DNA of 64,000 nucleotides from Squalus acanthias (taxonomy: Eukaryota), in NCBI GenBank assembly GCA_030390025.1, contig CM059431.1, positions 94,800,001 to 94,864,000 of the forward strand, given 5' to 3'. A program made the position numbers and the translations under genes. Below the pieces are notes generated by a model. The model had not been told where the DNA came from, searched no databases, and was given only the letters and a program-made list of their open reading frames with translations. Shown here in pieces: positions 1,684-45,478 of this stretch; the first letter of the stretch is position 1; each line of letters opens with the position of its first letter.

Positions 1684-3665
1684 TGATGAAACAAAAAAAG
1701 AGGGTGTATGATGCATGTCAGGTGAATTCATCAAGGGAGAACCAGACCAAATACGATAAGTTGAGAGGGGAAGTGAAGATGAAAATAAGATTGACAAAGA
1801 GAGAATATGAGAGGGAACCCAAAAGGGAACATAAAAGGGAACCCAAAAATCTTCTACCGGCATGTCAACAGTAAGCGGGTAGTAAGAGGCCTATTAGCGA
1901 CATAGAAGGTGTTATATGCTTAGAGGTGCAGGGCAAGGCTAGAACACTCAATGAGTACTTTGTATCGGTAGTTACTAAGGAGGTGGCGGCTGACAAAATA
2001 TCAGTAGCTGTGGAAGAGGTAGAAGCAATGAAAGGGTGAAAATTGATAGACCGGATGTACGAGAAACGCTGGGTATGCTTAGAGTGGACAAGTCGCCTGG
2101 CCCAGATGGCTTGCATCCCAGATTGCTAAGGGAATTGGGGGAGGAGATAGCGGAAGGGCTTGCCATAATTTTCCAATCTTCCCTAGATGCGGGGGAGGTG
2201 CCTGAGGATTGGAAAGTGACAAATGTGACACCATTGTTCAAGAAAGGGTGTAAGGACAATCCTAGTAACTACAAGCTGGTCAGTTTAGCATCAGTGGTGG
2301 GTAAAGTTTTCGAAACAATAATCAAGGAAAAAATTAAAGGGCACTTGGAGAGGTTTAAGCTAATTAAGGAGAGCCAACACGATTTGTAAAAGGTAGATCA
2401 TGTTTGACTAATTAATTGAATTTTTTGATGAAGTAACAGGGAGGATCGATGAAGGGATGTTGTCTACATGGATTTTAGGAAGGTGTTTGACAAAGTACCA
2501 CATAGAAGGCTGGTTAACAAAATTGAGGCTCACGGAATAGGTGGGTCTGTGGCAGCTTGGATAAGGAATTGGCTTAAGGACAGAAAACAGCGAGTTGTGG
2601 TAAATGGCTGTTTTTCAGACTGGAGGATGGTAGACAGTGTTGTTCCCCAAGGGTCAGTGCTGGGGCCACTGCTTTTTTTTGATGTATATAAATGACCTGG
2701 ATATTGGAATACAAAGTAGAATTTCTAAATTTGCCGATGACCCCAAACTTGGGGGTGTGGCAAACAGTGAGGATGATACCAATCGACTGCAACAGGACAT
2801 AGAAAGGCTAGCAGAATGGGCAGACAAGTGGCAGATGGAATTTAATACAGTGGCAGATGGAATTTAATACAGAGAAGTGTGAGGTGATGCATTTTGGCAG
2901 AAGGAACATGGAGAGGCAAAATACACTTAATGGCACAGTTTTAAAGAGTGTGCAGGGACAGAGGGACCTGGGAGTTAATGTGCATAGGTACCTGAAGGTG
3001 GCGGGACATATTGAGAGAGTGGTTAACAAAGCGTATGGGATCTTGGGCTTCATAAATAGAGGTATTGAGTACAAAAGTAGAGAAGTTATGCTGAACCTTT
3101 ATAAAGCGCTGGTTAGGCCACAATTGGAGTATTGCATCCAGTTCTGGTCACCACACTTTAGGAAGGATGTGAAGGCCCTTGAGAGGGTGCAGAGGAGATT
3201 TACCAGAATGGTTCCGGGGATGGGGGATCTTGGCTAAAAGGACAGGTTGGAGAAGCTGGATTTGTTTTCGTTAGAGCAAAGGAGGTTGAGGGGTGATTTG
3301 ATAGAGGTGTACAAGATTATGACGGGTTTGGATAGGCTAGACGGGGAAAGGCTGTTCCCACTTGTTGATGGTACAAGGACTAGGGGACACAGATTTAAGG
3401 TTTTGGGCAAGAGATATAGGGGGATGTGAGAAAAAACTTTTTTACGCAGCAAGTGGTGAGGACCTGGAACTCGCTGCCGACAGAAGTGGTGGAAGCGGAA
3501 ACGCTCAAGGTTTTCAAGGGGAGACTAGATAGGCACTTGAGGGAAATAAACTTGCAGGGCTACGGGGATAGAGTGGGGGAATGGGACTGACTGGATTGCT
3601 CTACAGAGAGCCGGCGTGGACTCGATGGGCTGAATGGCCTCCTTCTGTGCCGTTATGACTCTATA
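1684..3665 (+). mobile_element. 5'-truncated, frameshifted CR1-type LINE (RT and 3' UTR)
   Basis: KSPGPDGLHPR, DFRKVFDKVPH, VPQGSVLGP, KFADD, LVRPQLEYCIQFWSP in successive frames; ends in tatgactctat tail. Confidence 0.92.
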
Positions 3666-3673
3666 ACACTAAC

Positions 3674-4290
3674 CTAGATTTCCTGTTGTTGTTCCCGCGG
3701 TTGTGTTTTATTCGTAGGGGAAGGGATTTTCGGGCGAACTTTCACTTTTAATTCTGTGGCAACTATGGTTCCGTTTACGTATTCTGATACATGATAAGTA
3801 ACACACATTTCGTGGCATAGTTCTCCCTCCTTTTCATCCAGCATCCATTGATAAGGGGGGTAATTTTCTGCACCGTACACGAACGCAGGAGAAAGGCTGT
3901 AAACCGGGAATTCGGACAATTTTTCAGTGGGCCTGGTCGAGGGTTTACGCATCCATATAAACCCTCATACTCTTGGCACCATCGTGGCCAACATAACATG
4001 GTTTCTCCATTGTCTTCCGATTGAGTTGGGCTCCCATTATGTGTCCAAGGATCCCCTATCTGGTGATAACTAGTATTGTCACCCACCTTTGCCTGAATGA
4101 ACCATACACGTGGCTGATTCATAGTCCCACTCTTACACTTTATACATATTCCCCTCCCTTCTTGGACCGTGTATGTGGTTACCCGTACTATTCCTGAACA
4201 ACTTGTGTCGCACGTACCCTTGATGGATCAGAGGCTAACCTCCCGAGCGATACCTAGGGGCGGAGTTACAGGGGCAATGGTAATCTGACT
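3674..4290 (-). pseudogene. Relic of a related retroviral env N-terminal (Ig-like) region
   Basis: Frame open from 4227 through ORF 3775-4122 reads YTVQEGRGICIKC...VWF...NGETMLCWPRWCQEYEGLYGC, matching provirus env ISVTVGKRICLTC...WWW...NGQLRVCWDKWWEPDEGIYVC; the next frame has YHVS...VATELKVKVRP versus WHVS...NATELITRP. Confidence 0.75.
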
Positions 4291-9446: not shown

Positions 9447-10413
9447 TTGGGCTGTTCCCGAGACCCCAGGCTCCTCTCCGAGCCGGAATTCCCCATCTCT
9501 CTCTCCAACCACTCTCGAGTCCCCAGATTGCTGCAACCCCCACCACCACCCCCCGCGATTGCCCACACTCCGGTTGCCGAGGCGGGCTGCGGGAGACCTC
9601 TGCCGCAGTCTGTTCTCCGATCCACAGCACCTCCACCACACTGAAGGGATCTGACGGTCCTGGCAGTCATTTCAAATTAATCCCTCACCTTGGAAAAACC
9701 ATCGCAAAACGTCTACACTATATTGTTAATCAAATCATTTATTCAATGTGCTAACCAGGCAGTTGTATCGTTAGCTTGGTAAAAAGACATGCAGTTAAAT
9801 CTAGTTAATAATCAATAAGGCAGTTTGAATATGCTTTCAGCTCTGTAGTGTAATATAAGATGCCACACGCGCCTTTTTCGATCGTAAACCGGGCACACTC
9901 CGTCGTGCTAGCCCTTCCACAACCCAAGAGCCTGGGAGGGTGTCTTGATCGCCTTTATTGGGTTGAGTCCATGGAAACTTGAGAGAAAGGGGATACCTTC
10001 AAGGAGTTCCGTGACTTTCATCCATAGCTGATCCAACGTGGATCCACTTTGTTGAGCCCAGACCTCCGGTGCTTTACGCAGCACCACGCAAAATGGATCT
10101 GTCACTGTGACGTTACTCAGCACTCTGCCCCAGCATGTGGATTTCCCCTGGATGACATCTCTCTCCGGTACAGCATTATTGTCACCAAGTGGGGGGGGGG
10201 GGGGGGGCATCGGGGGGTCAGGTTGGTTTACCTGGGAATAGGACGTTATTGCATCGCCACCACCGCCAAACAGATGTTCAGTACAGGGAACCCAACCTTT
10301 ATGAGAAAATCATGTGATCAGATGTCATGTGATTGGGCATCACATAGTCAGGTGTCATGTGATCAGAATGATCAAACCTCCAGGCATGCCCCCAACCAGA
10401 GTTGGCAACCGTA

Positions 10414-11613
10414 TCCTGACTGTGCTCTGTGCCCTCCATACGAGCTCCTGACTGTGCTCTCTGCCGTCCATACTAGCTCCTGACTGTACTCTGGGCCCTG
10501 CATACCAGCTCCTGACTGTGCTCTGGGCCCTCCATACTAGCTCCTGACTGTGCTCTGGGCCCTCCATACTAGCTCCTGACTGTGCTCTGTGCCCTCCATA
10601 CTAGCTCCTGACTGCTCTGGGCCCTCCATACTAGCTCCTGACTATGCTCTGGGCCCTCCATACCAGCTCCTGACTGTGCTCAGGGCCCTCCATACCAGCT
10701 CCTGACTGTGCTCTGGGCCCTCTACACTAGCTCCTGACTGTGCTCTGGGCCCTCTACACTAGCTCCTGACTGTGCTCTGTGCCCTCCATACTAGCTCCTG
10801 ACTGCTCTGGGCCCTCCATACTAGCTCCTGACTATGCTCAGGGCCCTCCATACCAGCTCCTGACTGTGCTCAGGGCCCTCCATACCAGCTCCTGACTGTG
10901 CTCTGGGCCCTCCATACCAGCTCCTGACTGTGCTCTGGGCCCTCTACACTAGCTCCTGACTGTGCTCTGGGCCCTCTACACTAGCTCCTGACTGTGATCT
11001 GGGCCCTCCACACTAGCTCCTGACTGTGCTCTGGGCCCTCCACACTAGCTCCTGACTGTGCTCTGGGCCCTCTACACTAGCTCCTGACTGCTCTGGGCCC
11101 TCTACACTAGCTCCTGACTGCTCTGGGCCCTCTACACTAGCTCCTGACTGTGCTCTGGGCCCTCCACACTAGCTCTTGACTGTGCTCTGCGCCCTCCGTA
11201 CTAGCTCTTGACTGTGCTCTGGGCCTTCCATACTCGCTCCAGACTGTGCTCTGGGCCCTCCGTACTAGCTCTTGACTGTGCTCTGGGCCTTCCATACTCG
11301 CTCCTGACTGTGCTCTGGGCCCTCCATACTAGCTCCTGACTGTGCTCTGGGCCCTCCATACTAGCTCCTGACTGTGCTCTGGGCCCTCCATACTAGCTCC
11401 TGACTGTGCTCTGGGCCCTCCATACTCGCTCCTGACTGTGCTCTGGGCCCTCCATACTAGCTCCTGACTGTGCTCTGGACCCTCCATACTAGCTCCTGAC
11501 TGTGCTCTGGTCCCTCCATACTAGCTCCTGACTGTGCTCTTGGCTCTCTACACTAGCTCCTGACTGTGCTCTGGGCCCTCCATACTAGCTCCTGACTGTG
11601 CTCTGGGCCCTCC
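10414..11613 (+). repeat. 32-bp satellite (ctcctgactgtgctctgggccctccatactag), left part, interrupted by the provirus
   Basis: ~37 tandem units; the array resumes in register at 24274. Confidence 0.95.
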
Positions 11614-13272
11614 TGTAAGGGGGTTTCACGTGGCTTTGTGCTTAGCCTGGGTGCTAGTGCGGGGTTAGGCCTTGTTGCCTGTTCTGGTCTCCAGCCAGCC
11701 TGGTAACACTAGACACCTGTGAGTGGTTCGACCCACTCGCCCTTACGGTTCTGACACTGGACTTAGGTGCGAGAGCAATAATGCAGAGAAAACTCAGGTA
11801 GACCCGGTTGAATAGTGCGAAATGGAAAATCTTTATTGCATATTATTCAAGATTACGAAATACATGTCATAAGCACAGATTAATGACAGTACAAACTTAC
11901 ATACATTTATGCAACTAGGTTTAGGGAAACGAGGAGCGCACGACACATCGTAAAAGGGGACACACATTATAATTATCCTTAAAACATAAACCCTCCCCTA
12001 TCAATGCCTGTCCTAATCTAGATCTGTAGGATCGAGACTCATGCTCACCACTCGTGATAACTCGGAGAATTCCGAACCTCTGCTCGGATGTTTTCACCGC
12101 AGCACCTGACTATCCACGTGTTGATCAGGGGTCTCTGTACCCAACTTGTTTACTCGCTTCTGCTCCGGCTAGCAGGCTGGATCGTCTGCTGTCATGAAGA
12201 TCTGTGTTGACCTTGGACTCCAGATACAGTTCAAAGAAGAGTCTTACTGTGCCCGACACCAGTTGTCGGTAGAACTCGAAGAATAGTCTTCTCGGGCCAG
12301 TTGTGGAGTAGCCGATAGAATTCGAAAATGGTCCTTATATTTTGAGGCGCGGTCGGGGCTTACTGACCGCGGCGACACGTGTAGTCTTCTTCTCTTCTCA
12401 TCTCATCTCATCTCATCTCCTCCCGGGCCTTCGGATCCGACACCGTTTACCGACTCCTAGGGATGGTGCGCCCGCTTATCGGCCTTTGCAGTCCAGCTCT
12501 CCACAGATCTTCGCGGCAAGCCACGAGGTTGACTCCCGGAAAATCAGCGGATCAGAGAATGAGAGTCCAGAGCTCCAGTCGGTAGTAAAGAATAAGAGCA
12601 CGATGAACAGCCAGAGGATAAGAGAAAGATGGACGTTTGGACACTACAGTTTATAGTACTGTAATTCCTTATCTCCCGCCCAATCTTTAATGTTCATCTT
12701 TTGTCATGTTTTGGCGCTCAAACTTCTTGTATGGGGTGGTACTTGTCGTTAATGGGTTACGGTGATACTTGTAACTGTCTGAGTACCCGTTAATATTTTT
12801 CCCATTGTGGAACCGGCTAGTAGTCTCCCTGGAGGGGTTTTGGGGGCTTCCAAATGCTTGCTGTGAGTACCCGTGAACGGCTCTCTCATCGTAGAGCCGT
12901 GGGGATTTTGCATATCAATGTCTTTGGATGGGTCCTTGATCGCCCAGTACAATAGCCCTCGTTTGTACCTGGAAGACCGATTCCAGTATTTATGTTTAAA
13001 ATGCAAACCCATCGCGTCTTGTCATTATCTCAAATGTGCTGAGTCCTGTCCGATCTCGCTGAAATGTTTATTGAAACGCCATCTTGTCTGCCTACTGAAA
13101 GTCTAGAACCTTCTGCCACGAGGCGTGGCGGCCATTTTACAGGCTGCTTGTGTCCTTTTTGAAACATGACAGCTTTTTGAAACATGACAGCATTTTGCTG
13201 AAATAAAGCTGTTTATACGAACTTTATGTTTCCTTATTATTATAAAATCGCGATAATTTTGCGAATTCTACA
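11614..13272 (-). repeat. 3' LTR of provirus (1659 bp)
   Basis: Direct repeat of 22633-24273 with about a dozen substitutions by eye plus an 18-bp tandem duplication; minus-strand TATAAA at 12650-12655 and AATAAA at 11832-11837. Confidence 0.95.
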
Positions 13273-13284
13273 GTCCCTCCTGTT
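13273..13284 (-). other. Polypurine tract
   Basis: AACAGGAGGGAC immediately 5' of the 3' LTR on the minus strand. Confidence 0.65.
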
Positions 13285-13726
13285 GATGCGAATAACTCCG
13301 CTTATCGTATCAAAAACATTGTGGTGAGCAATATTATCTCGATTCTCCATATCTAAAAATTCCCATAACTTAAAACTATCTAGGGTCTCCGTGTCGTCCT
13401 TATTTCCCAGGAAAATTACATTCTTATAACACCGTAGGCAGCATTTGCCTTTAACTTACACCGCGTGTATTTCCTTCCAGGTGTAACCAGGCCGATGCCT
13501 CTCGCACCACCTGCATATGCATATTTTTTATTCAAGGAAAAAGAAAACAAAAACAACCAAACAAACCAAACAATCATATTCAACAACACCAAATCAAAAT
13601 AATCAAAAAACAACTCTTAAACATGTAGAGTTCCAAACTTAATTACAGTTTCTGAGAAAAATCACGATCAATGACAACAATTCCGAGGCGCACGTGCAAA
13701 AACTGGAGTGACGCCATTTTGGCCGT

Positions 13727-16047
13727 TTACGCGGTGCTTTCTTCGTGCACGCGCACGTAACGCTCTCGCCACTCTCCCGTGTTTTCGTTCTTGGTGAGGC
13801 GTTTGCCTCTCTTACAATGCACGACCAATAAGTATATCGCAATAAACACTTGGCATACAACTAAAATGTGGGAGGCTATTCTAATCCAGGAAGGCACTTC
13901 AATGTTGGTGAACAGGTCCCACCACGGTGGGATTACTATGTCTAGAATTTCTGTCCCTATCTCGACAGTCTTTTGTTCTAGGGTGTAAAAATGTTTCTGC
14001 GAAACCGCAACGGCTTTCAAAAGCTTGGTGAGGTGTTCAGGGAGAGGGGGAATGAGGTATCCGAAATGCGCGACGAATCGCTGCAAGTCGGTAAAATTCT
14101 CTTTTACTGTTAGATGAACAGTGGATGGTTCAGGGATCGGGACAATTCGCTGCTGTGCCACTTGAACTTCAGCCCTGGGTTTAAAACAGAAACTGCTGTC
14201 ACTCACCGGACACCGGCTGCGGTTTCCATGCTGGTAGTGTTGCGCTGCAGTGGTAACGCAATATGTTCCACCCCCTATGTATGCCACCTGCGGAGGCACA
14301 TGATCTTGTGCCATTGCCTCCATGGTGCAATTCATGGGCTTGGCGCCAGCCGTTCTGAACCCGCACTGTGGTGATAAAAAGGCATTCAAGTGCTGGGGAC
14401 ACAGGATTATGTGTGCTCCCCTGCCACGACAACCAGAGAGATCTGTACCTGTCATCGTTTGCTCCCAGCGGATGACGTAAGGTGGAACCGCTGCATAGCG
14501 AATGTGGGCTCCCCCCTGAATGACACCAATGTTCTCTACCCGATATACCGGGGCGGGCTTTGCTGTGTCGCCCAAAACCGGCATACGTAAAACTACCCCC
14601 ACAATGGTGTGGTTTGATCGTCCGCAGTCCACGGGGACTGGGTATGCTTCTGAAGCTAGCCTGAGCTGGCACGGGCTTAATGCGTTCTGAAAAGGGTGGA
14701 GCGCCTGCAGGTGTTTGTTACTTATCCAGGACGGGACCAAACCTTGTTTTAAATCCTCCAAATTACTGCGGCCCTCGCCCAGTAACCACGCCCCGTAAAG
14801 CACGCACACCTCGTTCTGCGCAGCCTGATCGGACGCATTCCGATCTTCCCTGATCAGGGCATTCACTGTATCTGCATGTTTCTCCAGCTCAGCTATAATT
14901 TCTTTTAAATGGAGAGTCATGGGCTGGTCCTCATGTAACCCAGACCCAACCACCTTATTTTCGTCTGTAAGAATATTCTTTAATTGTGTTTTCAAACCAT
15001 TAATCTGGGTCTGCAGCTCCACGCTGTGTAGAGCGTTGACCACAGATGTACCTGTATTGAAAGCAGTGAACATGTCGTTCACAACACCCCTTCTTTGTCT
15101 CCCCACCTGACCCAAAACTTCATGTGGTGCGGTGTACAAACTTGTTTTATCAATTTCCGCGAAATCGAACTCATAAAATTGCCTAAACATCTTGGTCAAC
15201 AGGACCTGATATAACTGTTCCGTCTCTTTGGGGCACCACTCCGGCAACCGCACCTCGGTGAGGTTTAAAATCACTGAGGCCACCGCATAATGTACCCCCT
15301 GAAATAGTAGCTGGTCTGTAGGGACCAGTACCAAACCATTCCTGGGTCCCTTACCGGTTTCAGGGCACCCTTCTTCCTTAGCTAGAACCACCGGAATTGT
15401 GGGCGGGGCCTTGCGTGGGCGCGTAATGAGTTCAGTGGCGTTTACCGGGATCGGAGAGTATGGGGCCCCGCACCCCCTGGTGCTTACATGCCACCTCATC
15501 CCCTGCCCGTTATCCTGCCACTGATTCACGAAAAATATGGATATGCCTTTGGGGCAAACGTGCTTTGACCCCCACATACATACATAGATTCCCTCATCCG
15601 GTTCCCACCATTTGTCCCAACAGACTCTCAATTGTCCGTTAGTCCCCGTAATTGTCCGATGGGTAGTATCCTCATATTCCTGCTCAGCTTTCGTAGCCAC
15701 CACCATCGGCTCAATGGGACCTTCCCATTGCATGTCAAACAAATCCTTTTGCCGACGGTGACGCTGATTCTGGGTGCAATGATCCTCACTCTGGGGCACA
15801 GTAAAGAAGTCTCTTTGTAGGCAAATCCCGATGCACTGGAGTATTCCGTCGAATTCGTTCCCAGCCATCCCGGCCACCTTCCCTTGTGGAAATAAGTGGC
15901 GGTCTCCTCAGCCTTTCGCTTCCCGGTCCCATCCGTCGCGATGGGGGCCGTGTCCCCGGAGCAACCAAACACCACGACATCCTTGCTGCGGCCTCGATAG
16001 GCCAATCCACATCCAAATGCCGCGAGCACTACCAGAATCCGTTCCAT
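13727..16047 (-). pseudogene. env: env: signal peptide + Ig-like domain + class-I fusion glycoprotein resembling Mononegavirales F; one inferred frameshift near 15690
   Basis: MERILVVLAAFGCGLAY signal at 16047; furin site RQRR/GVVNDMFTAF at 15089-15100; heptad ELQTQINGLKTQLKNIL; Cys-rich ectodomain; second heptad; TM segment IASHILVVCQVFIAIYLLVV; short tail. ORF 13727-15877 covers the downstream frame. Confidence 0.85.
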
Positions 16048-16054
16048 CCTTCCT

Positions 16055-16085
16055 TGGTTCCTGTGATCAGATAGAATGAGGTAGC
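16055..16085 (-). promoter_or_regulatory. Candidate env splice acceptor
   Basis: Minus strand ctcattctatctgatcacag/G, 13 nt upstream of the signal-peptide ATG. Confidence 0.55.
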
Positions 16086-16886
16086 CAGCCTCCCAAGAGT
16101 CTCTGGCTTTTGTGAAGGGTGAGCGGGTCCCCTGACCTCGCCTCACGTAAGAAGACATGTGCGCTGGATAGATCTTTTAGCTAAACCTAATCTTAAACTC
16201 CCATCATTTATCTTTTACTTATTAAAATTTTAACTATCAAACTTCAAACTTAAAACTTATAAACTATAAAACTTATAACTTATCTTATAAAACTGTACAG
16301 CGCCGCCCATTCCCAGAGCAGCCTACTCAAATTCTGCGGTTGCTGCCACAGGCTTCTCCCAACGGTGGGAGGGCGCTGACCCCTCCTTTTGATCTGCCGC
16401 AGCCTGTGGCTGCTGCGCTGGGACTGGGATCTCCCTGGGCTGTTTTAGCCTTGACCCTACGCCTTGGGACACTCTGGGGACTTACCCACATCTTTCTGGG
16501 CTGGGGTTTCCGACTTGACCTACGGGGAACTACCGGGGGCAGGACCGACGGACCGGGTTTCGAGACTTCCACCGTGGCGACCTGTGGTCCCACCACAGTC
16601 GCTGGCTCCGCCCCCCCCTGACTCCGCCTCCCTGAACTCGGGATCTGCAGCCTCTGGCACTGCCCTACTTGGCCCAGTAGGCGGCCCTTTACTCGCAGTC
16701 CCTACCTCCCTCGAGGGCAAGACTTCCAAGGCGGACGGATTGGGTTCTGAGGCTTCCATTGCCACGTCCTGTGGTCCCACCACAGCCACTGGCCCCGCCT
16801 CCCCTAACTCCGCCCCCCTGATTTCGGGACCTGCAGCTTCTGTCTCCACCCTGTGTGGATCTCCATCTGCAGTCCCTATCTTCCCT

Positions 16887-19800
16887 TTACCTGAATCGGG
16901 CCCTTTCGTCCTCCGATTCCAGCTCCTCTTCGCTTGTGTCACTATCTTGGTCGAGCTCCTCGAACTCTTCCTCATCTGACTCCCAACCCCAATAAAGGAT
17001 CCTACATTTTGCTAGGATGTCCTCTCCCCTGATGCAGGCTGCTTTGCCTGCCTGTGTGCCCTGTGGCCCTACCCGGGGCTGCGAGTCCCCACTCGCAGGT
17101 TTGGCCCCTGTGGTAGGCCCTTGTGCACCCGGCTTATACAGTTTGCACTGATTTACGTGGAACCACTTAGTGCGCCGAGGTACTTTTACGGCGTATACCA
17201 TGGGACTCGCCTTATCTACAATGCTGTAGGGTCCCATATACAGTGGTTCCAGACTCCCTACTCTGGCATAGTTTCTGACCATGACCTGGTCTCCTACTTC
17301 CCACTCCTGCTTCTTGCGGTGTTCCAGCAACAGGCGATTGCCCTGATGCTGTCTTCCCATGTTCCCAGCCGCCTGCTCATAAACCTGCTTCAGGCGCTCC
17401 AAGAGGGTCTGGACGAACTTGTCCCTGCTTACCTCTTGGAGCTGACCCTCAGTGAGCACCGGCGCTAGTACATGGGTGGGGGTTCGCATGATCCTTCCAG
17501 TCATCACCTCGTGCGGGGAATACCCCGTACCTTTCGACTGACTGGCCCGGATCCCCATGAGGACTAGAGGCAGAACCTCCGCCCATTTTTGGGGCGAGTT
17601 CATAGTCTCTTTCCTCAATTTCTCCTTCAGGGTCCGGTTCATGCGTTCAACAATCCCGGATGACTGGGGATTGTGCGCTACGTGCCACTTCCCTTCAATG
17701 CCCAAAAGCATGAGGGTGTTCTGCATCACCTGGCCGGTGAAATGACTCCCTTGGTCTGACTCCACGAAATGGGGGAGTCCCCACCGCGAGAACACTTCCC
17801 GGACCAAGATTTTTGCAGTACCCAGCGCCGTAACTGTTCTACAGGGGAAGGCTTCCACCCATTTGGAAAACACATCCACCAAGACGAGGCAGTATTTGTA
17901 GCCTCCCTGGGTGGTGGGCAGGGGCCCTATATAGTCGATCTGTATCGACTGCCATGGTCCCTCCACCCTCCTGATGTGCCCCATGGGCACTTTCCTTTTC
18001 TGGGGGTCTGGGTTGTTTGCAGCGCACACGAGACAGCTAGCACAGAACTCGCGGACCTGCTCCCTGAGTCCCGGCCACCATCCCGCCTACTCTACCCGTT
18101 GCCAGGTAACCTCGGGCCCGGGGTGCCCTGCCCCCGGCCCCTCATGAGCCAACTGGAGGAATTCCCTCCTGTGCTGCTGCGGCACAACCCACTGCTCCTC
18201 GCAGAACAGCATGCCTTCCTTAAGGGAGAGGGTTGCCATACTGTACGGACCCTCTACCTGCTTGCCCTCAGCAATGGTTCTGAGAACTGCTTTTAGGGCG
18301 GGATCCTGGTTCTGGACGGTCTTAAGGTCTAGGGGCAATGCTACCCTGGTGTTCCCGGGATTCCCGTCCCTGCCTTGGATCGCTGCCACGGGTCTGGGCC
18401 CATAGGGGTCCCAGAAAATGCCGTTGCGGGCACCCTCCCTGGCGAGCGCATCCGCCTGCTGGTTGCCCTCCCCACGGGGCTCTGTGGAGGAGTGAGCCTT
18501 CACCTTATGGATGAAAATCTCCCCTTCCTCCCCTACTGCTGCTAGGATCTTCTCCAGCAAGGGCTTCACCGTTAAAGGTCGCCCGTCCGCGGAGGTGTAT
18601 CCACGGCGGGACCAAATGGCCAGGTATTCCGTACACGAATTGCATGTGAACATACTGTCCGAGCAAATCGTCTATGGGGTTGGGAAAGTTTCTGGGTGGG
18701 TAACGATGTACGCCACCGCAGACAGCTCAGCCTGCTGCGCGCTCATGGTGCTGGGGAGCTTAATCGCCAGGGCAAAGTTTGCCGCAGGGTCATAAACTCC
18801 ACACCCTGTGAGTCGTTCGCCAGCGGATACTGTGCTGGACCCATCAACATAAATTTCGCGCCCTGTGGGATGTATCCCGGCCCGTAAACCTATGTTGACT
18901 TCCCACACCCCCTCCACCGAACACTGGTGGGCTGTACCGGGGTATACCAAATTGGCCGCAAGCCTGGGCTCGCAAAGACCTTTAACCCTAAGATCCATCT
19001 GGGAAAGGAGAAGGGTCCAGCGCGCAATTCGAGCGCTGCTTACGGTCCCATCCTTAATCCTCCCATCTAGAAGCATCTTAGTTGGTGTGTGATGGGTGAG
19101 GAGAGTGATGGGAGAGAGCCCTGTGAAGATCGCTGATCTTTTCACAGCCCAATGCGTGGCTAAAAGATGCCTTTCGCAATTGGAGAAACTCCTCTCCACA
19201 TCGGTCAACACCCTGGACAAATAGACAACCGGCCTCAGCTTGCCGTGGCGCTCTTGGAGCAGCACAGCGCTCAAGCTGTCTCCGCTGGCAGCTACCTCCA
19301 GGAAAAATTCCTTCCCCCCATCTATGGCCCCTAAAGCTGGCGCGGTCTGCAAATCCCTTTTTAACTTCTCGAAGGCTGCCTGGCAGCCCTCGTCCCAAGA
19401 CCACTCCACTCCCTTATGGAGGAGTCGGAGCAGCGGCGCCGCTGTGGCCGCATAGTCTTCGATAAAATCTCTGCAGTAACCGGTCAGTCCCAAAAAGGAC
19501 CTCACACCCCTTATGGTGTTGGGAATCGGTAACTCCTGCACCGACTCCCTCCTAGCCTTATCTATGGCTCTTTCCCCAGCGCGAATGGTCAGCCCCAGGA
19601 ATTTTACTTCCTGCTGACCGATACGTGCTTTCTTAGGGTTTACTTTAAAACCCTTTCTCGCTAGCAGCTCCAATAACTCGGCCAGTAGTGGTCCATGCTC
19701 CTCCCTTGAATCCGTAAATAGGAGCAAATCATCCACGTACTGCACTATCTGATTGGGCTGACTAAACTCCTTTAAACTTCCTGCCATACACTAATGGAAA

Positions 19801-20804
19801 ATACTGGGGCTGTTGTGGAAACCCTGTGGCAGACAGCTCCATGTGTACTGTTGTCCTTTGAAAGTAAAGGCAAACTTGTACTGGTCCTCTCGCCGCAGCG
19901 GGATGGACCAAAAACCGTTCGAGATATCCAGCACCGTGAACGTGGTCGCGGACGCTGGGATGCTCCCTATTAGGTCAGCAACTGCTGCTACCGTGGGCGC
20001 GCAGGCGGGGATGTTACTGTTAAGGACTCTGTAGTCCACCGTGGCCCTCCACGAATTATCCGGCTTCCTAACCGGCCATAATGGGGAGTTCACGTGTGTG
20101 GCTATCGGCCTCAACACGCCCTGCTGCACCAAGGAGGACATTGCTGCCTCCATATCGGGTTCCGCTTCTTTGGGGAAGTTATACTGCTTTTGGGGCCGGG
20201 TCATGGGGTCCCCATCTACGCTGACCTCAAACCCGGTAACCCTCCCACAATCGTGCTTGTGGGTTGCAAACACGTGCATATTATCTGACACGTACGTTTG
20301 CATGTCCGTTGGGACATCCGCGACCATAAGCCCGAGGTCGTAACCTCCGGATGGCTTCATGGTACACAGGGCCCCTTTACCTTCCTCCCCCGGAATTACC
20401 ACTACCTTGCCTTTTCCATCCTTGGCTCCCCAGAGACAGTGATTCCTAAGGTCCACGAGGATCCCGTGCTCCGATAGGAGATCTGATCCGAGGATGCCTC
20501 TCCCACCCCCCTCTTGCCATTTCATCAGTATGCACTTCCACGTGGTGTGGAGTGCTCCTAAATGAATGGAGAGCGGAATGGAGAACGCGCCAGCCTGCTC
20601 TTTTCCCGTGAACCCCGCTAATGTGTATGGGACCTTGGTAGACAGTGGTGAGTCAAAGGGGCTATCCGTATGAATCACGGTGCATGAAGCTCCCGTGTCC
20701 AACAAATAACTACCCTTCTACTTCTCTACCTCCATCTCCACCAGGGGTCGCTTCCACGCATCATAGCTGAGCGGACACAGGTAGACGGGCTGTGCGGGCT
20801 CTAG
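16887..20804 (-). pseudogene. pol: pol (protease, RT, degenerate RNase H/tether, RNase H, integrase) in one frame with four premature TAG stops
   Basis: LLDTGASC; VLDISNGFW, CLPQGFHNSP, YVDD; tether FFLEVAAS...NCERHLLA; RNase H IYVDGSS, SAQQAELSAV, HKVKAH, GNQQADALAR; IN HHCC, QIDYIGP, ESDQGSHF, SGIVERMN, GPY. Stops at 20718, 19791, 18672, 18087. Confidence 0.92.
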
Positions 20805-22628
20805 TCATTGGGTATTGTTGGACGGGGCTGCGGCATCTGCAGGGCCGGTAGCGACTGCCACCCTTCCTTGCGAAATCATGAGGGTGCGCATGGCTCCCAA
20901 CATTGATTCGATCGCATCGGGATGGATAGGCACACCAGCTCCCCTATCAGAGACAGGCGCCTGGGCTCGGACTGCGGGATTTTTATCCCTGGACTCCTTC
21001 CAAGGGTTCCTGCAGTTCTTGCGCCAGTGCCCTGTCTTTCCGCATCCGAAACAAGCATTACTGGCTTGTGGGACGCGATTTCCCTCCTGATGCCACTCCT
21101 TTTGAGCCGGGGCTGTGGGTCGTGCCTCATGCACCTTTCCCTTAAGGGGACGCGCTCCCGTACTCCTGGTATTATGGTACCCTACCGTGAGGTGGTTTAG
21201 GACCGACTCCTCTGTTGTGGCGGGGTTAGTGGGATCAAACCACGCTTTGGCCTGCTCCCTCACGGCTGGCAAGCTGTTGGCTACTATACATCTGAGCCAG
21301 TGAGCTAAACCAACGCCGTTTAAATCAATGCGCTCGGGCGCGCCTGGGCAACTACGCTGATAGACAGGCCACAGCCTGTCGGCGAAAACCTTCGGGGGTT
21401 CTCCCTCCATCTGCATAGTCTGTCCCAATCTCACAAACGGACCTTCATTGTCCGCCCCCAACACCTCTAGGACCTCATCTCTTAACTCCTCATAGGTCCT
21501 ATTACCCCTTTTACTCGCGTCTGAGAGACACTGGAGGATCGAGCTGTCTAAGGAGAACAGCAGCATTTTTGCCCTTTCCCCATCGTCGCAGCCGTTAATG
21601 GCTGCAGTCTGCTCTACCTCCCTGAAATGTACGGAAGGGTCGTCTGACTCGGACAGCTTCCGTACGTGGCTGATCATAGCCCTCAGCTGGTGTGCGCTGT
21701 GAGGCAACACAAGCTGGTTGAGGAGATCCCCCGCTTCCCCACCGTCTCCGTTCGGGCCCCTCTTGATACCTGTAAGCGGGCACAATTGTCCTGGCTTCAC
21801 TACTACTTCAGGGGGCTGTACTACCTCGGGGACCTCTTCCTCTACTTCTACCACTTCCTCCCTTACCCAGGTTGCCGAATAGCTGGGTGGCGCGGAGGGC
21901 ACAGTGGCAAATACCTCCTCTGCTTTGTTCGGTGGGGATTTCTGGAATTCCCCACCCACCGGCGGCTGGTGTGCTGACGGGCTGATAAGGCACACCATGC
22001 CGTGCGCTTTATTCAGGGCCTCTTTAAGGTTCCTTATCTCTCTTTGGCAGACGCTGTGATCGGCCCCCTCATGTTTATCCTCGAGGGCCATCTTATATGC
22101 CGCCCATACCCCCTTTAAGCTCTCTTCCTGGGCTTTTATTTGAGCAGCCAGGCAGGCACATCGTTCCCTTATTCTGCCCTCATTTAATTTTGCCTCAGTG
22201 ACCTGGCACTCGAGGTAATCTATTTTCGCCTCATGGTGGTTGGCGACTAACTGGCGTTCTTGATGCAACGCATTTAAAGACGCGATGAGCTGCTGCCCCC
22301 CCGCGACCTTCTCGTCCATTTCCACCTCTAAACCCTTGATCTGAGCTGCCTGCGCTATGATGACCTGGTCCGAAAGCTGGACTTGTCTTTTTTAACACAT
22401 CAGCCAGACCGCTTTCTCGACAGATTTTTTATGTTCCTTGCTACCTGTCCACCCCACGGCTGCCTCTCGTGGACGCTTATCCACCAGCAGGTCACTTATC
22501 CATCTCTTAGTCAAATTCACTTTTCCAAAAACATAATCGGCTATCCTCTCTTCCATAACATTTCGCCCATTCATACCAGGGTCTAACACGTTATTTTCTC
22601 GCTGCCAGTGTCCCTTCGTAGTCGCCAT
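20805..22628 (-). pseudogene. gag: gag (N-terminal coiled coil, capsid-like region, single CCHC knuckle) with one in-frame TAA
   Basis: ORFs 22392-22628 and 20805-22325 share a frame, separated by TAA at 22392-22394; CFGCGKTGHWRKNC zinc knuckle. Confidence 0.85.
22610..22627 (-). other. Primer binding site, tRNA-Arg(TCG)-like
   Basis: TGGCGACTACGAAGGGAC 5 nt downstream of the 5' LTR; 17/18 complementary to a recalled vertebrate tRNA-Arg(TCG) 3' end, GTCCCTTCGTGGTCGCCA. Confidence 0.8.
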
Positions 22629-22632
22629 TATC

Positions 22633-24273
22633 TGTAAGGGGGTTTCGCGTGGCTCTGTGCTTAGCCTGGGTGCTAGTGCGGGGTTAGGCCTTGTTGCCTG
22701 TTCTGGTGTCCAGCCAGCCTGGTAACACTAGACACCTGTGAGTGGTTCGACCCACTCGCCCTTACGGTTCTGACACTGGACTTAGGTGCGAGAGCAATAA
22801 TGCAGAGAAAACTCAGGTAGACCCGGTTGAATAGTGCGAAATGGAAAATCTTTATTGCATATTATTCAAGATTACGAAATACATGTCATAAGCACAGATT
22901 AATGACAGTACAAACTTACATACATTTATGCAACTAGGTTTAGGGAAACGAGGAGCGCACGACACATCGTAAAAGGGGACACACATTATAATTATCTTTA
23001 AAACATAAACCCTCCCCTATCAATGCCTGTCCTAATCTAGATCTGTAGGATCGAGACTCATGCTCACCACTCGTGATAACTCGGAGAATTCCGAACCTCT
23101 GCTCGGATGTTTTCACCGCAGCACCTGACTATCCACGTGTTGATCAGGGGTCTCTGTACCCCACTTGTTTACTCGCTTCTGCTCCGGCTAGCAGGCTGGA
23201 TCGTCTGCTGTCATGAAGATCTGTGTTGACCTCGGACTCCAGATACAGTTCAAAGAAGAGTCTTACTGTGCCCGACACCAGTTGTCGGTAGAACTCGAAG
23301 AATAGTCTTCTCGGGCCAGTTGTGGAGTAGCCGATAGAATTCGAAAATGGTCCTTATATTTTGAGGCGCGGTCGGGGCTTACTGACCGCGGCGACACGTG
23401 TAGTCTTCTTCTCTTCTCATCTCATCTCATCTCATCTCCTCCCGGGCCTTCGGATCCGACTCGTTTACCGACTTCTCGGGATGGTGCGCCCGCTTATCGG
23501 CCTTTGCAGTCCAGCTCTCCACAGATCTTCGCGGCAAGCCACGAGGTTGACTCCCGGAAAATCAGCGGATCAGAGAATGAGAGTCCAGAGCTCCAGTCGG
23601 TAGTAAAGAATAAGAGCACGATGAACAGCCAGAGGATAAGAGAAAGATGGACGTTTGGACACTACAGTTTATAGTACTGTAATTCCTTATCTCCCGCCCA
23701 ATCTTTAATGTTCATCTTTTGTCATGTTTTGGCGCTCAAACTTCTTGTATGGGGTGGTACTTGTCGTTAATGGGTTACGGTGATACTTGTAACTGTCTGA
23801 GTACCCGTTAATATTTTTCCCATTGTGGAACCGGCTAGTAGTCTCCCTGGAGGGGTTTTGGGGGCTTCCAAATGCTTGCTGTGAGTACCCGCGAACGGCT
23901 CTCTCATCGTAGAGCCGTGGGGATTTTGCATATCAATGTCTTTGGATGGGTCCTTGATCGCCCAGTACAATAGCCCTCGTTTGTACCTGGAAGACCGATT
24001 CCAGTATTTATGTTTAAAATGCAAACCCATCGCGTCTTGTCATTATCTCAAATGTGCTGAGTCCTGTCCGATCTCGCTGAAATGTTTATTGAAACGCCAT
24101 CTTGTCTGCCTACTGAAAGTCTAGAACCTTCTGCCACGAGGCGTGGCGGCCATTTTACAGGCTGCTTGTGTCCTTTTTGAAACATGACAGCATTTTACTG
24201 AAATAAAGCTGTTTATACGAAACTTTATGTTTCCTTATTATTATAAAATCGCGATAATTTTGCGAATTCTACA
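22633..24273 (-). repeat. 5' LTR of provirus (1641 bp)
   Basis: TGTAGAATTC...CCCTTACA on the minus strand; TATAAA at 23668-23673 preceded by a GC box/CCAAT (gattgggcgggag); AATAAA at 22851-22856. Confidence 0.95.
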
Positions 24274-24404
24274 CTCTATACTATCTCATGACTGTGCTCT
24301 GGGCCCTCCATACTAGCTCCTGACTGTGCTTTGGGCCCTCTACACTAGCTCCTGACTGTGCTCTGGGCCCTCCAGACTGTGCTCAGGTACTAGCTCCTGA
24401 CTGT
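24274..24404 (+). repeat. 32-bp satellite, right remainder
   Basis: Same unit as 10414-11613. Confidence 0.9.
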
Positions 24405-24760: not shown

Positions 24761-25260
24761 NNNNNNNNNNNNNNNNNNNNNNNNNNNNNNNNNNNNNNNN
24801 NNNNNNNNNNNNNNNNNNNNNNNNNNNNNNNNNNNNNNNNNNNNNNNNNNNNNNNNNNNNNNNNNNNNNNNNNNNNNNNNNNNNNNNNNNNNNNNNNNNN
24901 NNNNNNNNNNNNNNNNNNNNNNNNNNNNNNNNNNNNNNNNNNNNNNNNNNNNNNNNNNNNNNNNNNNNNNNNNNNNNNNNNNNNNNNNNNNNNNNNNNNN
25001 NNNNNNNNNNNNNNNNNNNNNNNNNNNNNNNNNNNNNNNNNNNNNNNNNNNNNNNNNNNNNNNNNNNNNNNNNNNNNNNNNNNNNNNNNNNNNNNNNNNN
25101 NNNNNNNNNNNNNNNNNNNNNNNNNNNNNNNNNNNNNNNNNNNNNNNNNNNNNNNNNNNNNNNNNNNNNNNNNNNNNNNNNNNNNNNNNNNNNNNNNNNN
25201 NNNNNNNNNNNNNNNNNNNNNNNNNNNNNNNNNNNNNNNNNNNNNNNNNNNNNNNNNNNN
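24761..25260. other. Assembly gap (500 N)
   Basis: Run of N flanked by G-rich sequence. Confidence 1.
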
Positions 25261-25422
25261 GGGGGGAGGAGGAAGGGGAGGGGGTGTAAAGGGGAGGGGG
25301 GTGACGGGGAGGGGAGGGGGGCGGGGGGGGAGGGAATTGGTGGGGGGTGTGGGTGGGGGGAGGGAGGACAGGGGACGGGGGCGGATCAGGTTTGTTTACC
25401 TGGGAATAGGGCGTTATTGCAT

Positions 25423-25551
25423 CCTGACTGTGCTCTGGGCCCTCCATACTAGCTCCTGACTGTGCTCTGGGCCCTCCATACTAGCTCCTGACTGTGCTCT
25501 GGGCCCTCCATACTCGCTCCTGACTGTGCTCAAGTACAAGCTCCTGACTGT
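25423..25551 (+). repeat. Short copy of the 32-bp satellite
   Basis: ~4 units followed by the same unique flank as 24404-24650. Confidence 0.85.
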
Positions 25552-32964: not shown

Positions 32965-35900
32965 TGTCGTAAGAATGAGCCTTACGCGTGGTGAACTTAA
33001 AGTAAGCTTTAATCAACTAAAAAGGTGCTACATACAAAAGAGGTCTTACTCTATGCCTCTCCAGGATCCAACTGATCAGCCCAGTATTTATCCTGGACTA
33101 ATCACAGGAAGTGATGTAATAAAGTTCGAGTCACAGGAAGCTGTATTGTGTTACCACATTCTCCCCCCCCAAAAGATTAGGAGGCCGGGATGAAGTTCGA
33201 GTCACAGGAAGCTGTATTGTGTTACCACATTCTCCCTCCATTTCGTAGCCGCTGGACGAGGGAGAGCCGCACCCGTTTGGGTTCTCGTAGCGGTAGAGGG
33301 CCCCTAGCCCGTTTACCCGCCGCGGGCCGTGGACCAGAGTCCGAGTGATCCAGCCCGCTCTGTGAGGGGTCAGGACGATCCTGACTGTGTACTGGTGCCC
33401 GAACGGGTGTCGGGCAGGGCTGTGGCAGATCCGTTTCCGAGCGTATGGTACGGGGTGGATCATGGCTGCGCGTGCGAGCCCCGACGGGCTCGTAGTCAGT
33501 CTGCCCCAGGTCGGCACGCTGGAGTGAGGTACCAGCCGGCGTCAGATCCAGATCGTGATGAGAGGCACCTGGCGAGCCCAGAGATGTGCCTGGTACAATA
33601 TCATCCCCTGGTGTCCCTCTATGTTTCGGCGGGCAGGGAGCCAGATCCCGCAATGACACGGTAGATTCCCGACCGTCAGGATACCGAATATAGGCGTAGG
33701 TAGGGTTGACGTCAGTGAGCTCAACCTCATCTACCAGGGGGTCATTCTTAGACGCCCGAACATATCTTCGGAGTAGCACTGGTCCCGGTGCAGTCAGCCA
33801 CGACGGGAGAGATATCCCATAGGATGAGCGACGCTGAAATCGGAAGAACCGTTCATGAGGCGTCGTATTTGTGGCGGTCGAAAGGAGGGACCGTGTGGAG
33901 TGTAATGCGTCTGGAAGTACTGCTTCCCATTGCTGGTTGGGTAGGCCCCGAGATCTCAAAGCCAGACGTACCGCATTCCAGATGATAGCGTTAAAACGCT
34001 CGACTTGCCCATTCCCGACCGGATGATAAGGCGTCGTTCTGCTGGCAGCAATACCCCGTTCCGAGAGATAGGCCTTGAGTTCTCCTGACATAAAAGAAGG
34101 GCCCCGATCCGAATGAACATAGGATGCCATGCCACAGAAAGCAAATACCTGCTCAAGGCAGCTGATAACCGTGGTCGTCAGCATATTGGGGCAGGGAAAG
34201 GCAAATGGAAAACGGGAATACTCATCGACCATGGTCAATAGATAAGTGTTGCGAGTTGAAGAGGGCAACGGCCCCTTAAAATCGATGCTAAGCCGTTGCA
34301 TTGGCTGGGTCGCATGTATGAGTATACCACCCGAGGGGCGGAAAAACTGAGGTTTCAATTCCGCACAGACTCTGCAGTCCGAGCACATCTTCTTTACATC
34401 CCCGGTAGAGAATGGGAGATTTCGGGACCGCACGAAGTGTAGCATGCGAGTAACGCCCGGATGACACAACCCATCATGGATGTCTACGAGCGTAGAGGGT
34501 GCCATGGCGGAGCAGAATGCTCGTGTGAGGGTATCCGGAGCCACATTCTCCTTGCCAGGTCGATAGTGGATGGTGTAACCAAAAGAGGCCAATTCCAGCC
34601 GCCAAAGCTGGATCTTATTATTTTTAATTTTGGTCCGTTTTCGATTATCGAGCATGAAGGCGACCGATCGCTGGTCCGTGATTAAGGTAAAGTGCTGGCG
34701 AGCTAGGAGATGAGTCCACTTCCGTACTGCCTCTATGATGGCTGTAGCTTCTTTCTCGACTGGAGGATAATGTAGCTCAGCCCCTTGAAAAGTCCTGGAC
34801 AAAAATGCCACCGGACGACCTTCCTGATTCAGAGTGGCCGAGATCGCCACCTCCGAGGCATCACACTCAACAACAAAAGGAAGACTCTCATCGATGGAGT
34901 GAAGAGCCGCTTTCTCCAACTGTTTTTTCAGGAGGTTAAAGGCTGCAACAGCCGCTGTGTCTAGTGGGAATGTGCTGGCCTTCAGTAGAGGTTGGATTCG
35001 GTCCGAGAAGTTAGTAATCCATTTAGCATAGTATGCAAACAGGCCGAGGGCCCGGCGCAAGGAGGCCGGATTCTTAGGTGGCGGGAGTTCTTGGAGTGGG
35101 CGAAGCCTTTCAGGGTCAGGTTTAATGATGCCATTGCCCACACAATAGCCAAGGATGTTGATGGTTGGTTGTGACTCAATGGATTTAGCCGCATTTAATG
35201 TCAAATTACGGTGCTGGAGTGCATCCCAAAATCGTTGGAGATTGGCGTCATGTTCCCGCTGATTGCGACCTGCGACAGTAATATTGTCCAGATAAGGAAA
35301 CGTATCCTTTAAGTCTTCCTGTTTGACCAGGTCATCCATTGCTCGCTGGAAGACAGCCACTCCATTAGTGACCCCAAAGGGGAGGCGACGAAATTGATAC
35401 AGCCGTCCATTGGCTTCAAAGGCCGTATACTGCTTGTCTGAGACGTTCAAGGGTACCTGATGATAGGCACTTTTCAGATCATATGTTGAGAACACCGTGT
35501 ACTCAGCCAGTTTATTAACCATATCATCGATGCGCGGCAATGGGTATGCGTCCAAGTCCGTATATTGATTGATGGTCTGTGAATAGTCAATGCACAGCCG
35601 TTTCTTGTGAGGTTGTAGAGGGTTCTTAACAATAACGACCTGGGCGCGCCATGGCGACGAACAAGGCTCGATGATATCCTCTGCTAAAAGCCGAGAAATC
35701 TCAGCCGCAATAAAAGACTGGTCTTCCTGACTGAAACGTCGTGACTTTGTTAAAATCGGTTTGCATCGAGGAGGGATACTGGTAAACAGTGAGGGTTCAT
35801 CCAGTGAAGCTGCTGACAATGCACAGAACAGTAATCGAGGTCGTATATTAGAAATAGTGAGTTCAGGTTTGGATCCGCCGAACTCAATGGTGAGCTTCTT

Positions 35901-44486: not shown

Positions 44487-45478
44487 TCACAGACAGCCCA
44501 TCCAAAATGGGGATTTACAAGCTGTCTCCTCCTCCTCTTCCTCCTGCTCCTCTTCCTCTTCCGCCTCCTCTTCATCCTCCTGAGGTGGTCGTGGAACCCG
44601 TGGTGGCAAAAGCTGTGCCCTCATGACAGCCAGGTTGTGGTGAATGCAGCAGACCACCACGAATTGGGACACCCACTCCAGCGAGTACTGGAGAGCTCCT
44701 CCTGAGCAGTCAAGGCACCGGAACCATTGCTTCAGAACACCGATGGTCTGCTCGATGAGGTTCCTTGTGGCAGCATGGCTGTCATTATATGAGTGCTGGC
44801 CGCGAGTGGTGGGGTTGCGGAGGGATGTCATCCAGCAGGTGTAAAGCGGATATTCCTTGTCACCGAGAAGCCACCCTTGGGTTCGATGTGGTGGCTTGAA
44901 GATTGCTGGCACAGTGGACTGGCACAGGATGAAGGCATCATGACTGCTGCCAGGATACCGTGCATTCACCATCATGATGTGCTGGGCGTGGTTGCACGCC
45001 AACTGCACATTAAGAAAGTGGTAGCCTTTTTTGTTACAGTACATCTCATCATTGATATGCGGCGCTTGCAAAGCCACATGTGTGTAGTCGATGGCGTCCT
45101 GCACCATAGGGAAACCCAATATCTTGGCAAAGCCATGTGTGTGCTCCTCCTGCTTCTCTCTGTCCAGAGAGAAGACAATGAAGTCCCTTCTCCAGCCTTT
45201 GTGACCGCCTGGATGCAGCGATGGATGGCGAACTGTGATATGTTTGCTATGTCACCTGCTCCAGCCTGGAAGGATTCGCTGCCGAAAAAGTTCGGGGCTA
45301 TGCTCACCTTGAGGGCCACTGGCAGCGCCATCATCACTCTGCTCTGAGGCTGCTGGTCTGGTTCCAAGAGGTGGCAGAGTTCTGTGATCACCTCCTTGGT
45401 GAAGCGGAGCCTCCTAATACACTGCTCCTGGCTAAGGTGCAGGTAGGAGAAGTGCTCCCTGAAGACCCTGGGTGGGTA
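44487..45478 (-). pseudogene. PIF/Harbinger DDE transposase (HARBI1-like), frameshifted
   Basis: GFPMVQDAIDYTHV, NKKGYHFLNVQLAC, YPGSSHDAFIL, LLGDKEYPL, HAATRNLIEQTIGVLKQWFRCL. Confidence 0.9.

Follow-up and report, generated by a model that had tools for sequence, protein, structure and literature searches.

The Envs of the lokiretroviruses are the nearest described vertebrate case (PMC7947760, PMC9040795; here and below, statements on published systems refer to the sections of the sources that were available) to the envelope (Env) protein studied here, which belongs to a provirus of Squalus acanthias. The provirus lies on the minus strand of a 64,000-nucleotide stretch (assembly GCA_030390025.1, contig CM059431.1, positions 94,800,001 to 94,864,000), hereafter called the window. 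It is organized as long terminal repeat (LTR)-gag-pol-env with a tether plus RNase H, as are the vertebrate lokiretroviruses with their dual RNase H (Wang and Han 2020, PMC7947760). The likeness extends to a non-canonical Env with a signal peptide, a basic cleavage site by the fusion peptide and a membrane anchor; the lokiretrovirus Env also has a coiled coil (PMC7947760). In contrast, the lokiretrovirus Env matches PF00523 with an E-value of 2.2e-7 (PMC7947760), whereas the shark env gives no such match. The main text of PMC7947760 does not contain the words 'cartilaginous', 'shark' or 'immunoglobulin'; the host tables of its supplementary table S1 could include cartilaginous fishes. Overall, the best explanation of our locus, and in our view a rather likely one, is an F-like Env with an immunoglobulin (Ig) variable-type outer domain in a retrovirus of cartilaginous fish.

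The baculovirus F protein and the F-type Env of errantiviruses (PF12259; eLife RP108449, bioRxiv 2023.10.26.564294) provide a second comparison, with a single env for binding and fusion and a furin site that abuts the fusion peptide. ESM Atlas places the shark fusion half nearest to Baculo_F (0.96). However, a PF12259 match is absent in the shark env and those elements are from invertebrates; the errantivirus paper reports no intact vertebrate endogenous retrovirus (ERV) homologous to the invertebrate elements (eLife RP108449), and the word 'immunoglobulin' is absent from the available text of that paper. Gamma-type Envs (PMC9967133) resemble the shark protein in having an N-terminal binding domain in the surface subunit, a proline-rich linker and a C-x-x-C motif. 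ESM Atlas also relates the shark Ig-like stretch to TLV_coat clusters (0.91). On the other hand, the shark env has no Pfam TLV_coat match, and the C-x6-CC motif was found in none of the 15 sequences examined; because of this absence the shark env is not of the gamma type. In addition, the transmembrane subunit of gamma-type Envs is far shorter than the shark fusion subunit of about 455 residues.

In murine leukaemia virus, the core of the receptor-binding domain is an Ig-like sandwich that does not show the canonical sequence motifs, so a beta-sandwich head on a retroviral Env is not new in itself. Variable-type domains of the Ig superfamily (PF13927; CD8 alpha, CRTAM, antibodies, fish NITR) share with the shark domain the Cys, Trp and D-x-G-x-Y-x-C residues, the 62-residue spacing and an A'-B segment like light-chain residues 10-47, and they are its best structural look-alikes. 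They differ in that the shark domain stays below every threshold, has an extra Cys pair and a B-strand C-x-x-C, and is carried by a viral fusion protein. Large DNA viruses also encode Ig variable-like modules, such as the poxvirus CD200-like proteins. However, these are separate immune-modulating genes with clear host relatives, whereas the shark module is fused to an entry protein and its donor was not detected. Among the titles and abstract beginnings of the papers listed by searches of open-access text, we found no description of an Ig-superfamily domain inside a retroviral Env or of this shark env family; in the zebrafish Env38 paper, 'Ig-like' refers to CD4.

The provirus spans 11613-24276 and is a defective endogenous retrovirus of a cartilaginous fish. 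The host group follows from the relatives: a search with env frame B returned four proteins, from the skate Rhinoraja longicauda and the sawshark Pristiophorus japonicus, and a search with env frame A returned three skate proteins. Self-BLAST of the window shows that the two LTRs (about 1.66 kb) are 98.08% identical across 1664 aligned bases. The Pfam families RVT_1, RT_RNaseH, RT_RNaseH_2, RNase_H, rve and Integrase_H2C2 were found in pol, which is interrupted by in-frame stops at 19793, 18674 and 18089; further stops, at 20807 and 20720, lie at the gag-pol boundary. Downstream of pol on the same strand, env is divided between frames A and B. This copy is dead in env and pol; a 31-base deletion shifts the env frame, and pol contains the three in-frame stops.

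Frames A and B are the two halves of one env gene. Frame A has a Met at 16047 in a stop-to-stop open reading frame (ORF) of 15628-16176. It opens with MERILVVLAAFGCGLAY, of which residues 4-16 form the most hydrophobic 13-mer of the frame, and the counterpart of this signal-peptide-like segment is modelled as a helix in both relatives with an AlphaFold model. The strings on which the initial annotation of this DNA had based an Ig-like domain hidden by a frameshift are all present: MERILVVLAAFGCGLAY and ISVTVGKRICLTC...RWWWLRK in frame A, NGQLRVCW...DEGIYVC in frame B. Frame B is open over 13727-15907, which corresponds to 726 codons from stop to stop and not to the 716 residues first given. 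In tblastn, the skate proteins P0001 and P0005 follow frame A (77% and 73%, respectively) down to 15673, through LSRNM, and then frame B (72% and 70%) from about 15670 onward. All five relatives that span the junction (P0001, P0005, P0004, P0008 and P0024) are continuous in one frame; in each, the conserved L-[RW]-K is separated from [RI]-T-I-[ST]-G by 20 residues, as compared to about 10 in the window copy.

Sequencing data locate the break. Logan contigs from four runs, all usable, were aligned to window 15400-16100. Two contigs of run X7 differ from the window at this place: the first replaces 5 window letters at 15665-15671 by 36, and the second carries 30 letters at 15669, one position being counted on both sides; both amount to a net 31 bases. 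Contigs have loose ends at 15665, 15669 or 15671 in X1 (5 contigs), X6 and X11, and the depth of X1 drops in the bin 15664-15687. Thirty-one bases is the offset in length needed to connect frame A with frame B. In addition, 22 of 40 variant sites (those listed among 79 sites that differ between copies) occupy third codon positions when frame A is read on the upstream side and frame B on the downstream side (binomial p 0.0039); the opposite frame assignments show no such preference. Since variants favour third positions, the family diverged under coding constraint in frame A upstream and in frame B downstream of the junction.

The initial annotation was thus right that env is split across two frames, but it had attributed the split to a single missing base near 15690. 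The tblastn frame switch and the extra bases of the other copies rule out such a loss; the junction is about 20 bases further downstream, and in other copies it is the 31 bases, not a one-base repair, that join the frames. The residues AEQEYE, taken from frame B at the junction, come from the wrong frame, as this DNA encodes LSRNM(R). Likewise, the interval of about 50 residues first reported between the core cysteines results from the deletion, the window copy having 52 and intact relatives 62. The deletion would remove ten codons between the C and D strands and shift the frame, leaving the domain cut and truncated.

Across this junction lies a region (PRVRIIAP to FFVNQW) that contains, in order in the family alignment, the A'-B segment SVTVGKRICLTC, RWWWLRK, R-T-I-T-G, L-x-V-C-W and D-E-G-I-Y-V-C. 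It is a probable Ig variable-type domain and a putative member of the superfamily, as judged from sequence and models. The Ig-type motifs are conserved across the family. The C-strand Trp is at +10 or +11 from the B-strand Cys in every alignment row that covers it, as compared to about 10-15 in variable- and intermediate-type Ig domains. Core Cys spacing is 62 residues in the four intact relatives (P0001, P0005, P0004, P0008), within the 55-75 or so of such Ig domains, and all four have D/E-x-G-x-Y-x-C. A second, divergent env fragment in the window encodes the same domain in one uninterrupted 150-codon frame. It retains the Cys, the Trp, the G-x-Y-x-C portion of the F-strand motif and the extra cysteines of the E strand and FG loop, with a Cys spacing of 63. 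The fusion half was not found near this fragment with the main and distant env queries. Among all six-frame window ORFs of at least 60 residues, [DE]-x-G-x-Y-x-C occurs once, as compared to 0.095 expected per mononucleotide shuffle, and 1 of 200 shuffles produced the complete pattern of Cys, 8-14 residues, Trp, 35-65 residues and the motif. Since shuffles rarely give the motif or the full pattern, the resemblance exceeds the window background.

Profile and sequence searches point in the same direction. Pfam Ig_3 (PF13927) aligns to P0008 over profile positions 6-74 of 78 with E 0.0085, and to P0005 with E 0.58. When the family profile was compared to the PDB (E up to 10), six of the seven matches were Ig-superfamily chains (a nanobody, CD8 alpha, CRTAM twice, a light chain and contactin-6), in register with the Cys, the Trp and the F-strand motif (E 0.2-1.1). 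Antibody chains make up 18 of the 19 PDB matches of window frame A (E 0.08-1.7); in most of these, residues 91-128 pair with light-chain residues 10-47. An alternative variable-like reading of the frame-B residues that lie upstream of the break was rejected, since tblastn and the variant sites place them in the wrong frame.

AlphaFold models were obtained for P0005 (model 1, 13 alignment rows) and P0008 (model 2, 12 rows). In both, strands occupy the places expected for B, C, C'/D, D and E; model 1 has strands for A' and F in addition. The Foldseek rows listed, judged by entry titles, are antibody fragments, CD8, CD147, CD79b and shark variable domains, with probabilities up to 0.99; the exception among them, cobra venom factor, appears with model 1 only, and model 2 gives none. 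In the VIA second look at model 2, the best comparison (Z 6.5, root-mean-square deviation 3.2) aligns 92 residues of a 107-residue light-chain variable domain. At least Z 5 was reached by 557 of 996 chains and Z 8 by none, and variable domains of fish NITR, TREM and CD79b score between 5.8 and 6.1. In BFVD, a search returned nothing at E ≤ 0.001; the top row was the kangaroopox CD200-like protein, at a non-significant E of 0.043.

The putative fusion half lies downstream of the Ig-like domain. R-x-x-R-G-x-x-N, in the region of the furin-type site and of the fusion-peptide-like GVVNDMFTAFNTGTSVVNAL, is kept in 9 of 9 env sequences and provides their only invariant columns. About 405 residues separate the cleavage site from the anchor IASHILVVCQVFIAIYLLV, which is followed by a short tail; F-type class I proteins have roughly 400 or more ectodomain residues before a single anchor. 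In ESM Atlas, the fusion half has Baculo_F clusters as nearest neighbors (0.96, 206 shared features), followed by Fusion_gly (0.91), and the ten best family-bearing matches all fall in one clan; a score of at least 0.95 is reached by about 1 in 100 shuffled proteins. The layout and the look-alike search make F-type a reasonable working label for this half, and it is used as a label, not as a demonstrated membership.

Several results weigh against the proposed architecture. For the outer domain, the Ig_3 scores are 17.0 bits (P0008) and 11.1 bits (P0005) against a curated cut-off of 30 bits, and Ig_3 matches 2 of 9 family rows, of which only three contain the whole domain in one piece. None of the PDB E-values on the Ig side (0.08-1.7) is significant. 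With P0005 alone, the best PDB match is NDUFB11 (E 0.38) and 6 of 14 matches belong to the Ig superfamily; with the second window fragment, neither of the two matches does. Two matches of frame B to heavy-chain variable domains (E 0.7-0.8) include residues that are read in the wrong frame. Mean pLDDT (the predicted local distance difference test score) is 40.8 for the P0005 model and 44.2 for the P0008 model, and 53-67 in the domain. Foldseek against the PDB gave no match at E ≤ 0.001, the best values being 0.019 and 0.047. The VIA wide search, which is independent of Foldseek, reached at best Z 5.1, with generic sandwiches (phage tail proteins, pilins), and no variable domain was present among its best 50 rows. 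The B-strand Cys may also be retained for another reason, since C-x-x-C occurs in distant envs that do not have the other hallmarks. For the fusion half, PF00523 (Fusion_gly) and PF12259 (Baculo_F) gave no match at E ≤ 0.1 in the env frames or at E ≤ 5 in five env relatives, and frames A and B have no match of any Pfam family at E ≤ 0.1. A profile of nine envs compared to the PDB returned no F protein, its best match being an unrelated chain (E 0.27). The two-sheet beta-sandwich with a B-F disulfide that the initial annotation called for is predicted with confidence by neither model, and its F-type fusogen has the layout and the ESM Atlas look-alikes on its side but no Pfam or PDB sequence match.

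These results leave room for a different view of the N-terminal region, namely that it is an Env-specific, disulfide-rich beta domain that resembles Ig by chance or convergence, was never host-derived and lies outside the superfamily. Such a domain would account for the fact that every database score is sub-threshold and that the VIA wide search yields generic sandwiches. It would also fit the ESM Atlas neighbors of the region, which are retroviral surface-subunit clusters (TLV_coat, 0.91, 168 shared features) and not Ig families, as well as the absence of a host relative from the 130 and 13 matches of two profile searches described below. In addition, a wrong-frame stretch gave antibody matches at E near 1, so that matches of this level arise by chance in a PDB rich in antibodies. 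However, the complete set of hallmarks is found with canonical spacing in lineages that are only about 25% identical, the Ig_3 match spans nearly the whole profile, and models from two different query proteins both yield lists of variable domains. We therefore consider an Env-specific domain unlikely, and an Ig variable-type domain the better description.

A second alternative places the functional centre in CLTC, as a thiol-exchange motif that joins the surface and fusion subunits as in gamma-type Env, with the Ig-like look being secondary. Of the 8 sequences that extend over the position and were checked, 7 have a C-x-x-C whose inner residues are hydrophobic, and so does the second window fragment. 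The motif is also found in P0073 (CFTC, 68-71) and P0085 (CVQC, 98-101), two of the distant envs. Gamma-type Envs use such a motif, with a hydrophobic bias of the inner residues and a variable place in the surface subunit (PMC9967133). Against this, the partner C-x6-CC is missing from all 15 fusion halves and TLV_coat is not matched in Pfam; besides, thiol exchange is compatible with an Ig-like fold and does not exclude it. This makes it a rather improbable replacement for the Ig variable-type reading. Finally, that frame A is a small accessory gene overlapping env, with its own Met and stop (15628-16047), and not the env start can be dismissed as highly improbable, given that the five junction-spanning relatives are single continuous proteins, that other copies have the 31 frame-joining bases and that the similarity of frame A to its relatives ends at 15673.

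The distribution of the family bears on the origin of the outer domain. A representative search returned 130 matches, mostly Niban proteins because the Niban portion of the chimeric model P0003 had entered its profile; the only new N-terminal relatives in it were P0008, P0024, P0075, P0108, P0117 and P0006. A word-based profile search returned 13 matches. The named sources of the relatives are Rhinoraja, Pristiophorus, Rhincodon, Scyliorhinus, Mustelus, Chiloscyllium and Heterodontus. Neither set contained a host Ig-superfamily protein or a virus from outside cartilaginous fishes, and a single-protein scan of viral contigs gave no relative. Because neither search returned a host Ig-superfamily protein, the donor is not identifiable, and the capture from a host announced in the initial annotation finds no counterpart in these matches. 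The distant envs P0073, P0085, P0087 and P0111 show 27-30% identity in the fusion half and have the core, cleavage site and fusion subunit in common with the family. When the N-terminal family was aligned to P0073, P0085 and P0087 with hhalign, only the cleavage and fusion-peptide stretch aligned (probability 93.8), and not the N-terminal domains. Since sister envs with the same fusion core have a dissimilar N-terminal module, the head would be an exchangeable cassette. That this shark and ray retrovirus head is such a cassette, built from an ultimately host-derived Ig variable-type domain on a fusogen like baculovirus F or paramyxovirus F, is a tentative proposal, possible but with the balance tilted against it.

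An intact precursor would have about 780 residues, an estimate that adds the ten missing codons to the two frames. From the N-terminus, it would consist of a signal peptide, about 67 conserved residues, an Ig variable-type domain of about 95 residues, a proline-rich linker, the conserved core, the furin-type site RQRR, the fusion peptide and a fusion subunit of about 455 residues with the anchor near its end. A furin-type protease would cleave this precursor, and the Ig-like domain would sit membrane-distal on the surface subunit, joined to the core by the proline-rich linker. As there is a single env gene with no separate attachment protein, the N-terminal module is the best candidate for receptor binding; judged from its position only, the Ig-like domain would bind a host receptor, or may act as the immune decoy that the initial annotation also put forward. 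Receptor binding would then release an F-like class I refolding. The C-x-x-C could instead, or also, link the subunits as in gamma-type Env (PMC9967133).

Confirmation of the fold would mean that an Ig variable-type domain can serve as the outer module of a retroviral entry protein. Variable domains are binders of other members of the Ig superfamily; if the predicted fold is true, the virus may therefore engage a host surface partner by mimicking a host ligand. To find the sequence signature of a variable-type domain on an F-like Env would be a novelty and, if the domain is what it appears to be, would represent the first Ig-superfamily module inside a retroviral Env. It would also extend non-canonical F-like retroviral envelopes to cartilaginous fishes and provide a natural instance of modules being exchanged on a class I fusogen. 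The family is high-copy, with 759 contig pieces on 701 bases in one run, and its many natural copies put a deep alignment within reach.

Table 1 Features of the provirus and of the second env fragment in the window.
Feature	Position	Strand	Basis
5' LTR	22632..24276	-	Paired with 11613-13275 by self-BLAST
gag-like ORF, 528 codons	20808..22391	-	Open frame before pol, same frame as pol
pol: protease, reverse transcriptase, tether RNase H-like, RNase H, integrase	16890..20717	-	Pfam
env start codon and signal-peptide-like segment MERILVVLAAFGCGLAY, frame A	15997..16047	-	Hydropathy
About 67 conserved residues before the Ig-like domain (GCSG...GRWPGWLG-NST...LLC)	15796..15996	-	Family alignment
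Probable Ig variable-type domain	15518..15795	-	Frame A 15673-15795 plus frame B 15518-15670; motifs, spacing, sub-threshold matches
CLTC: B-strand Cys within conserved C-x-x-C	15730..15741	-	Family alignment
Break: 31 bases (ten codons plus one) missing relative to other copies	15665..15671	-	Contigs, tblastn, relatives
F-strand-type motif DEGIYVC, frame B	15578..15598	-	Motif
Rest of env, frame B: end of Ig-like domain, Pro-rich linker, conserved core, cleavage site, fusion subunit, stop codon	13727..15670	-	
Furin-type site RQRR, then GVVNDMFTAFNTGTSVVNAL (fusion-peptide-like)	15089..15100	-	Frame B residue 194
Membrane anchor IASHILVVCQVFIAIYLLV	13823..13879	-	Top 19-residue hydropathy in frame B, residues 598-616
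3' LTR	11613..13275	-	Paired with 22632-24276 by self-BLAST
Second, divergent env fragment, same domain, one uninterrupted 150-codon frame	3775..4227	-	tblastn with P0005, 25% identity, E 1e-4

The segment of about 67 residues that precedes the Ig-like domain has a pLDDT of 24-45 in both models. It weakly resembles the end of an antibody heavy-chain variable region (framework region 3, J segment and start of CH1). P0008 residues 22-74 match with E 0.012 and 0.023, 9 of the 12 matches being named antibody or nanobody heavy chains, and window frame A residues 46-109 match with E 0.08. Model 2 incorporates one strand of this segment (43-46) into the sandwich. The segment could be the remnant of a second Ig-type domain, or the resemblance could be due to chance.

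The end of pol and the start of env are about 840 bases apart. Window 16330-17011 on the minus strand contains two overlapping open frames of 163 and 124 codons, and the interval has an internal 110-base repeat (16547-16656 and 16734-16842, 80% identical); an accessory gene and a spacer are both possible. Arrays of repeat units with a 32-base spacing abut the outer LTR ends (10413-11613, 24274-24404 and 25422-25551), and a gap of 500 N is located at 24761-25260. The public gene models P0003, P0004, P0024 and P0006 are chimeras with env pieces of the family: Niban 1-like and ZFP2-like in sawshark, pol-env in whale shark and repeat-env in skate. These models are either annotation artefacts or exonised ERV fragments.

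The rest of the window is occupied by other mobile elements. Only mobile-element families were found when 60 ORFs outside the provirus were scanned with Pfam. An uninterrupted 1153-codon pol frame of another LTR element (33225-36683, minus strand) encodes protease, reverse transcriptase, RT_RNaseH and integrase; it has no PF00075 RNase H match and is not followed by a long env-like frame. Pieces of a long interspersed nuclear element (LINE) lie directly downstream of the second env fragment, at 2-1727 and 1994-3234. Overall, 2-1727, 39968-42151, 44490-45251 and 57314-57721 comprise LINE endonuclease and reverse transcriptase frames together with two DDE_Tnp_4 (Harbinger-type) transposase frames.

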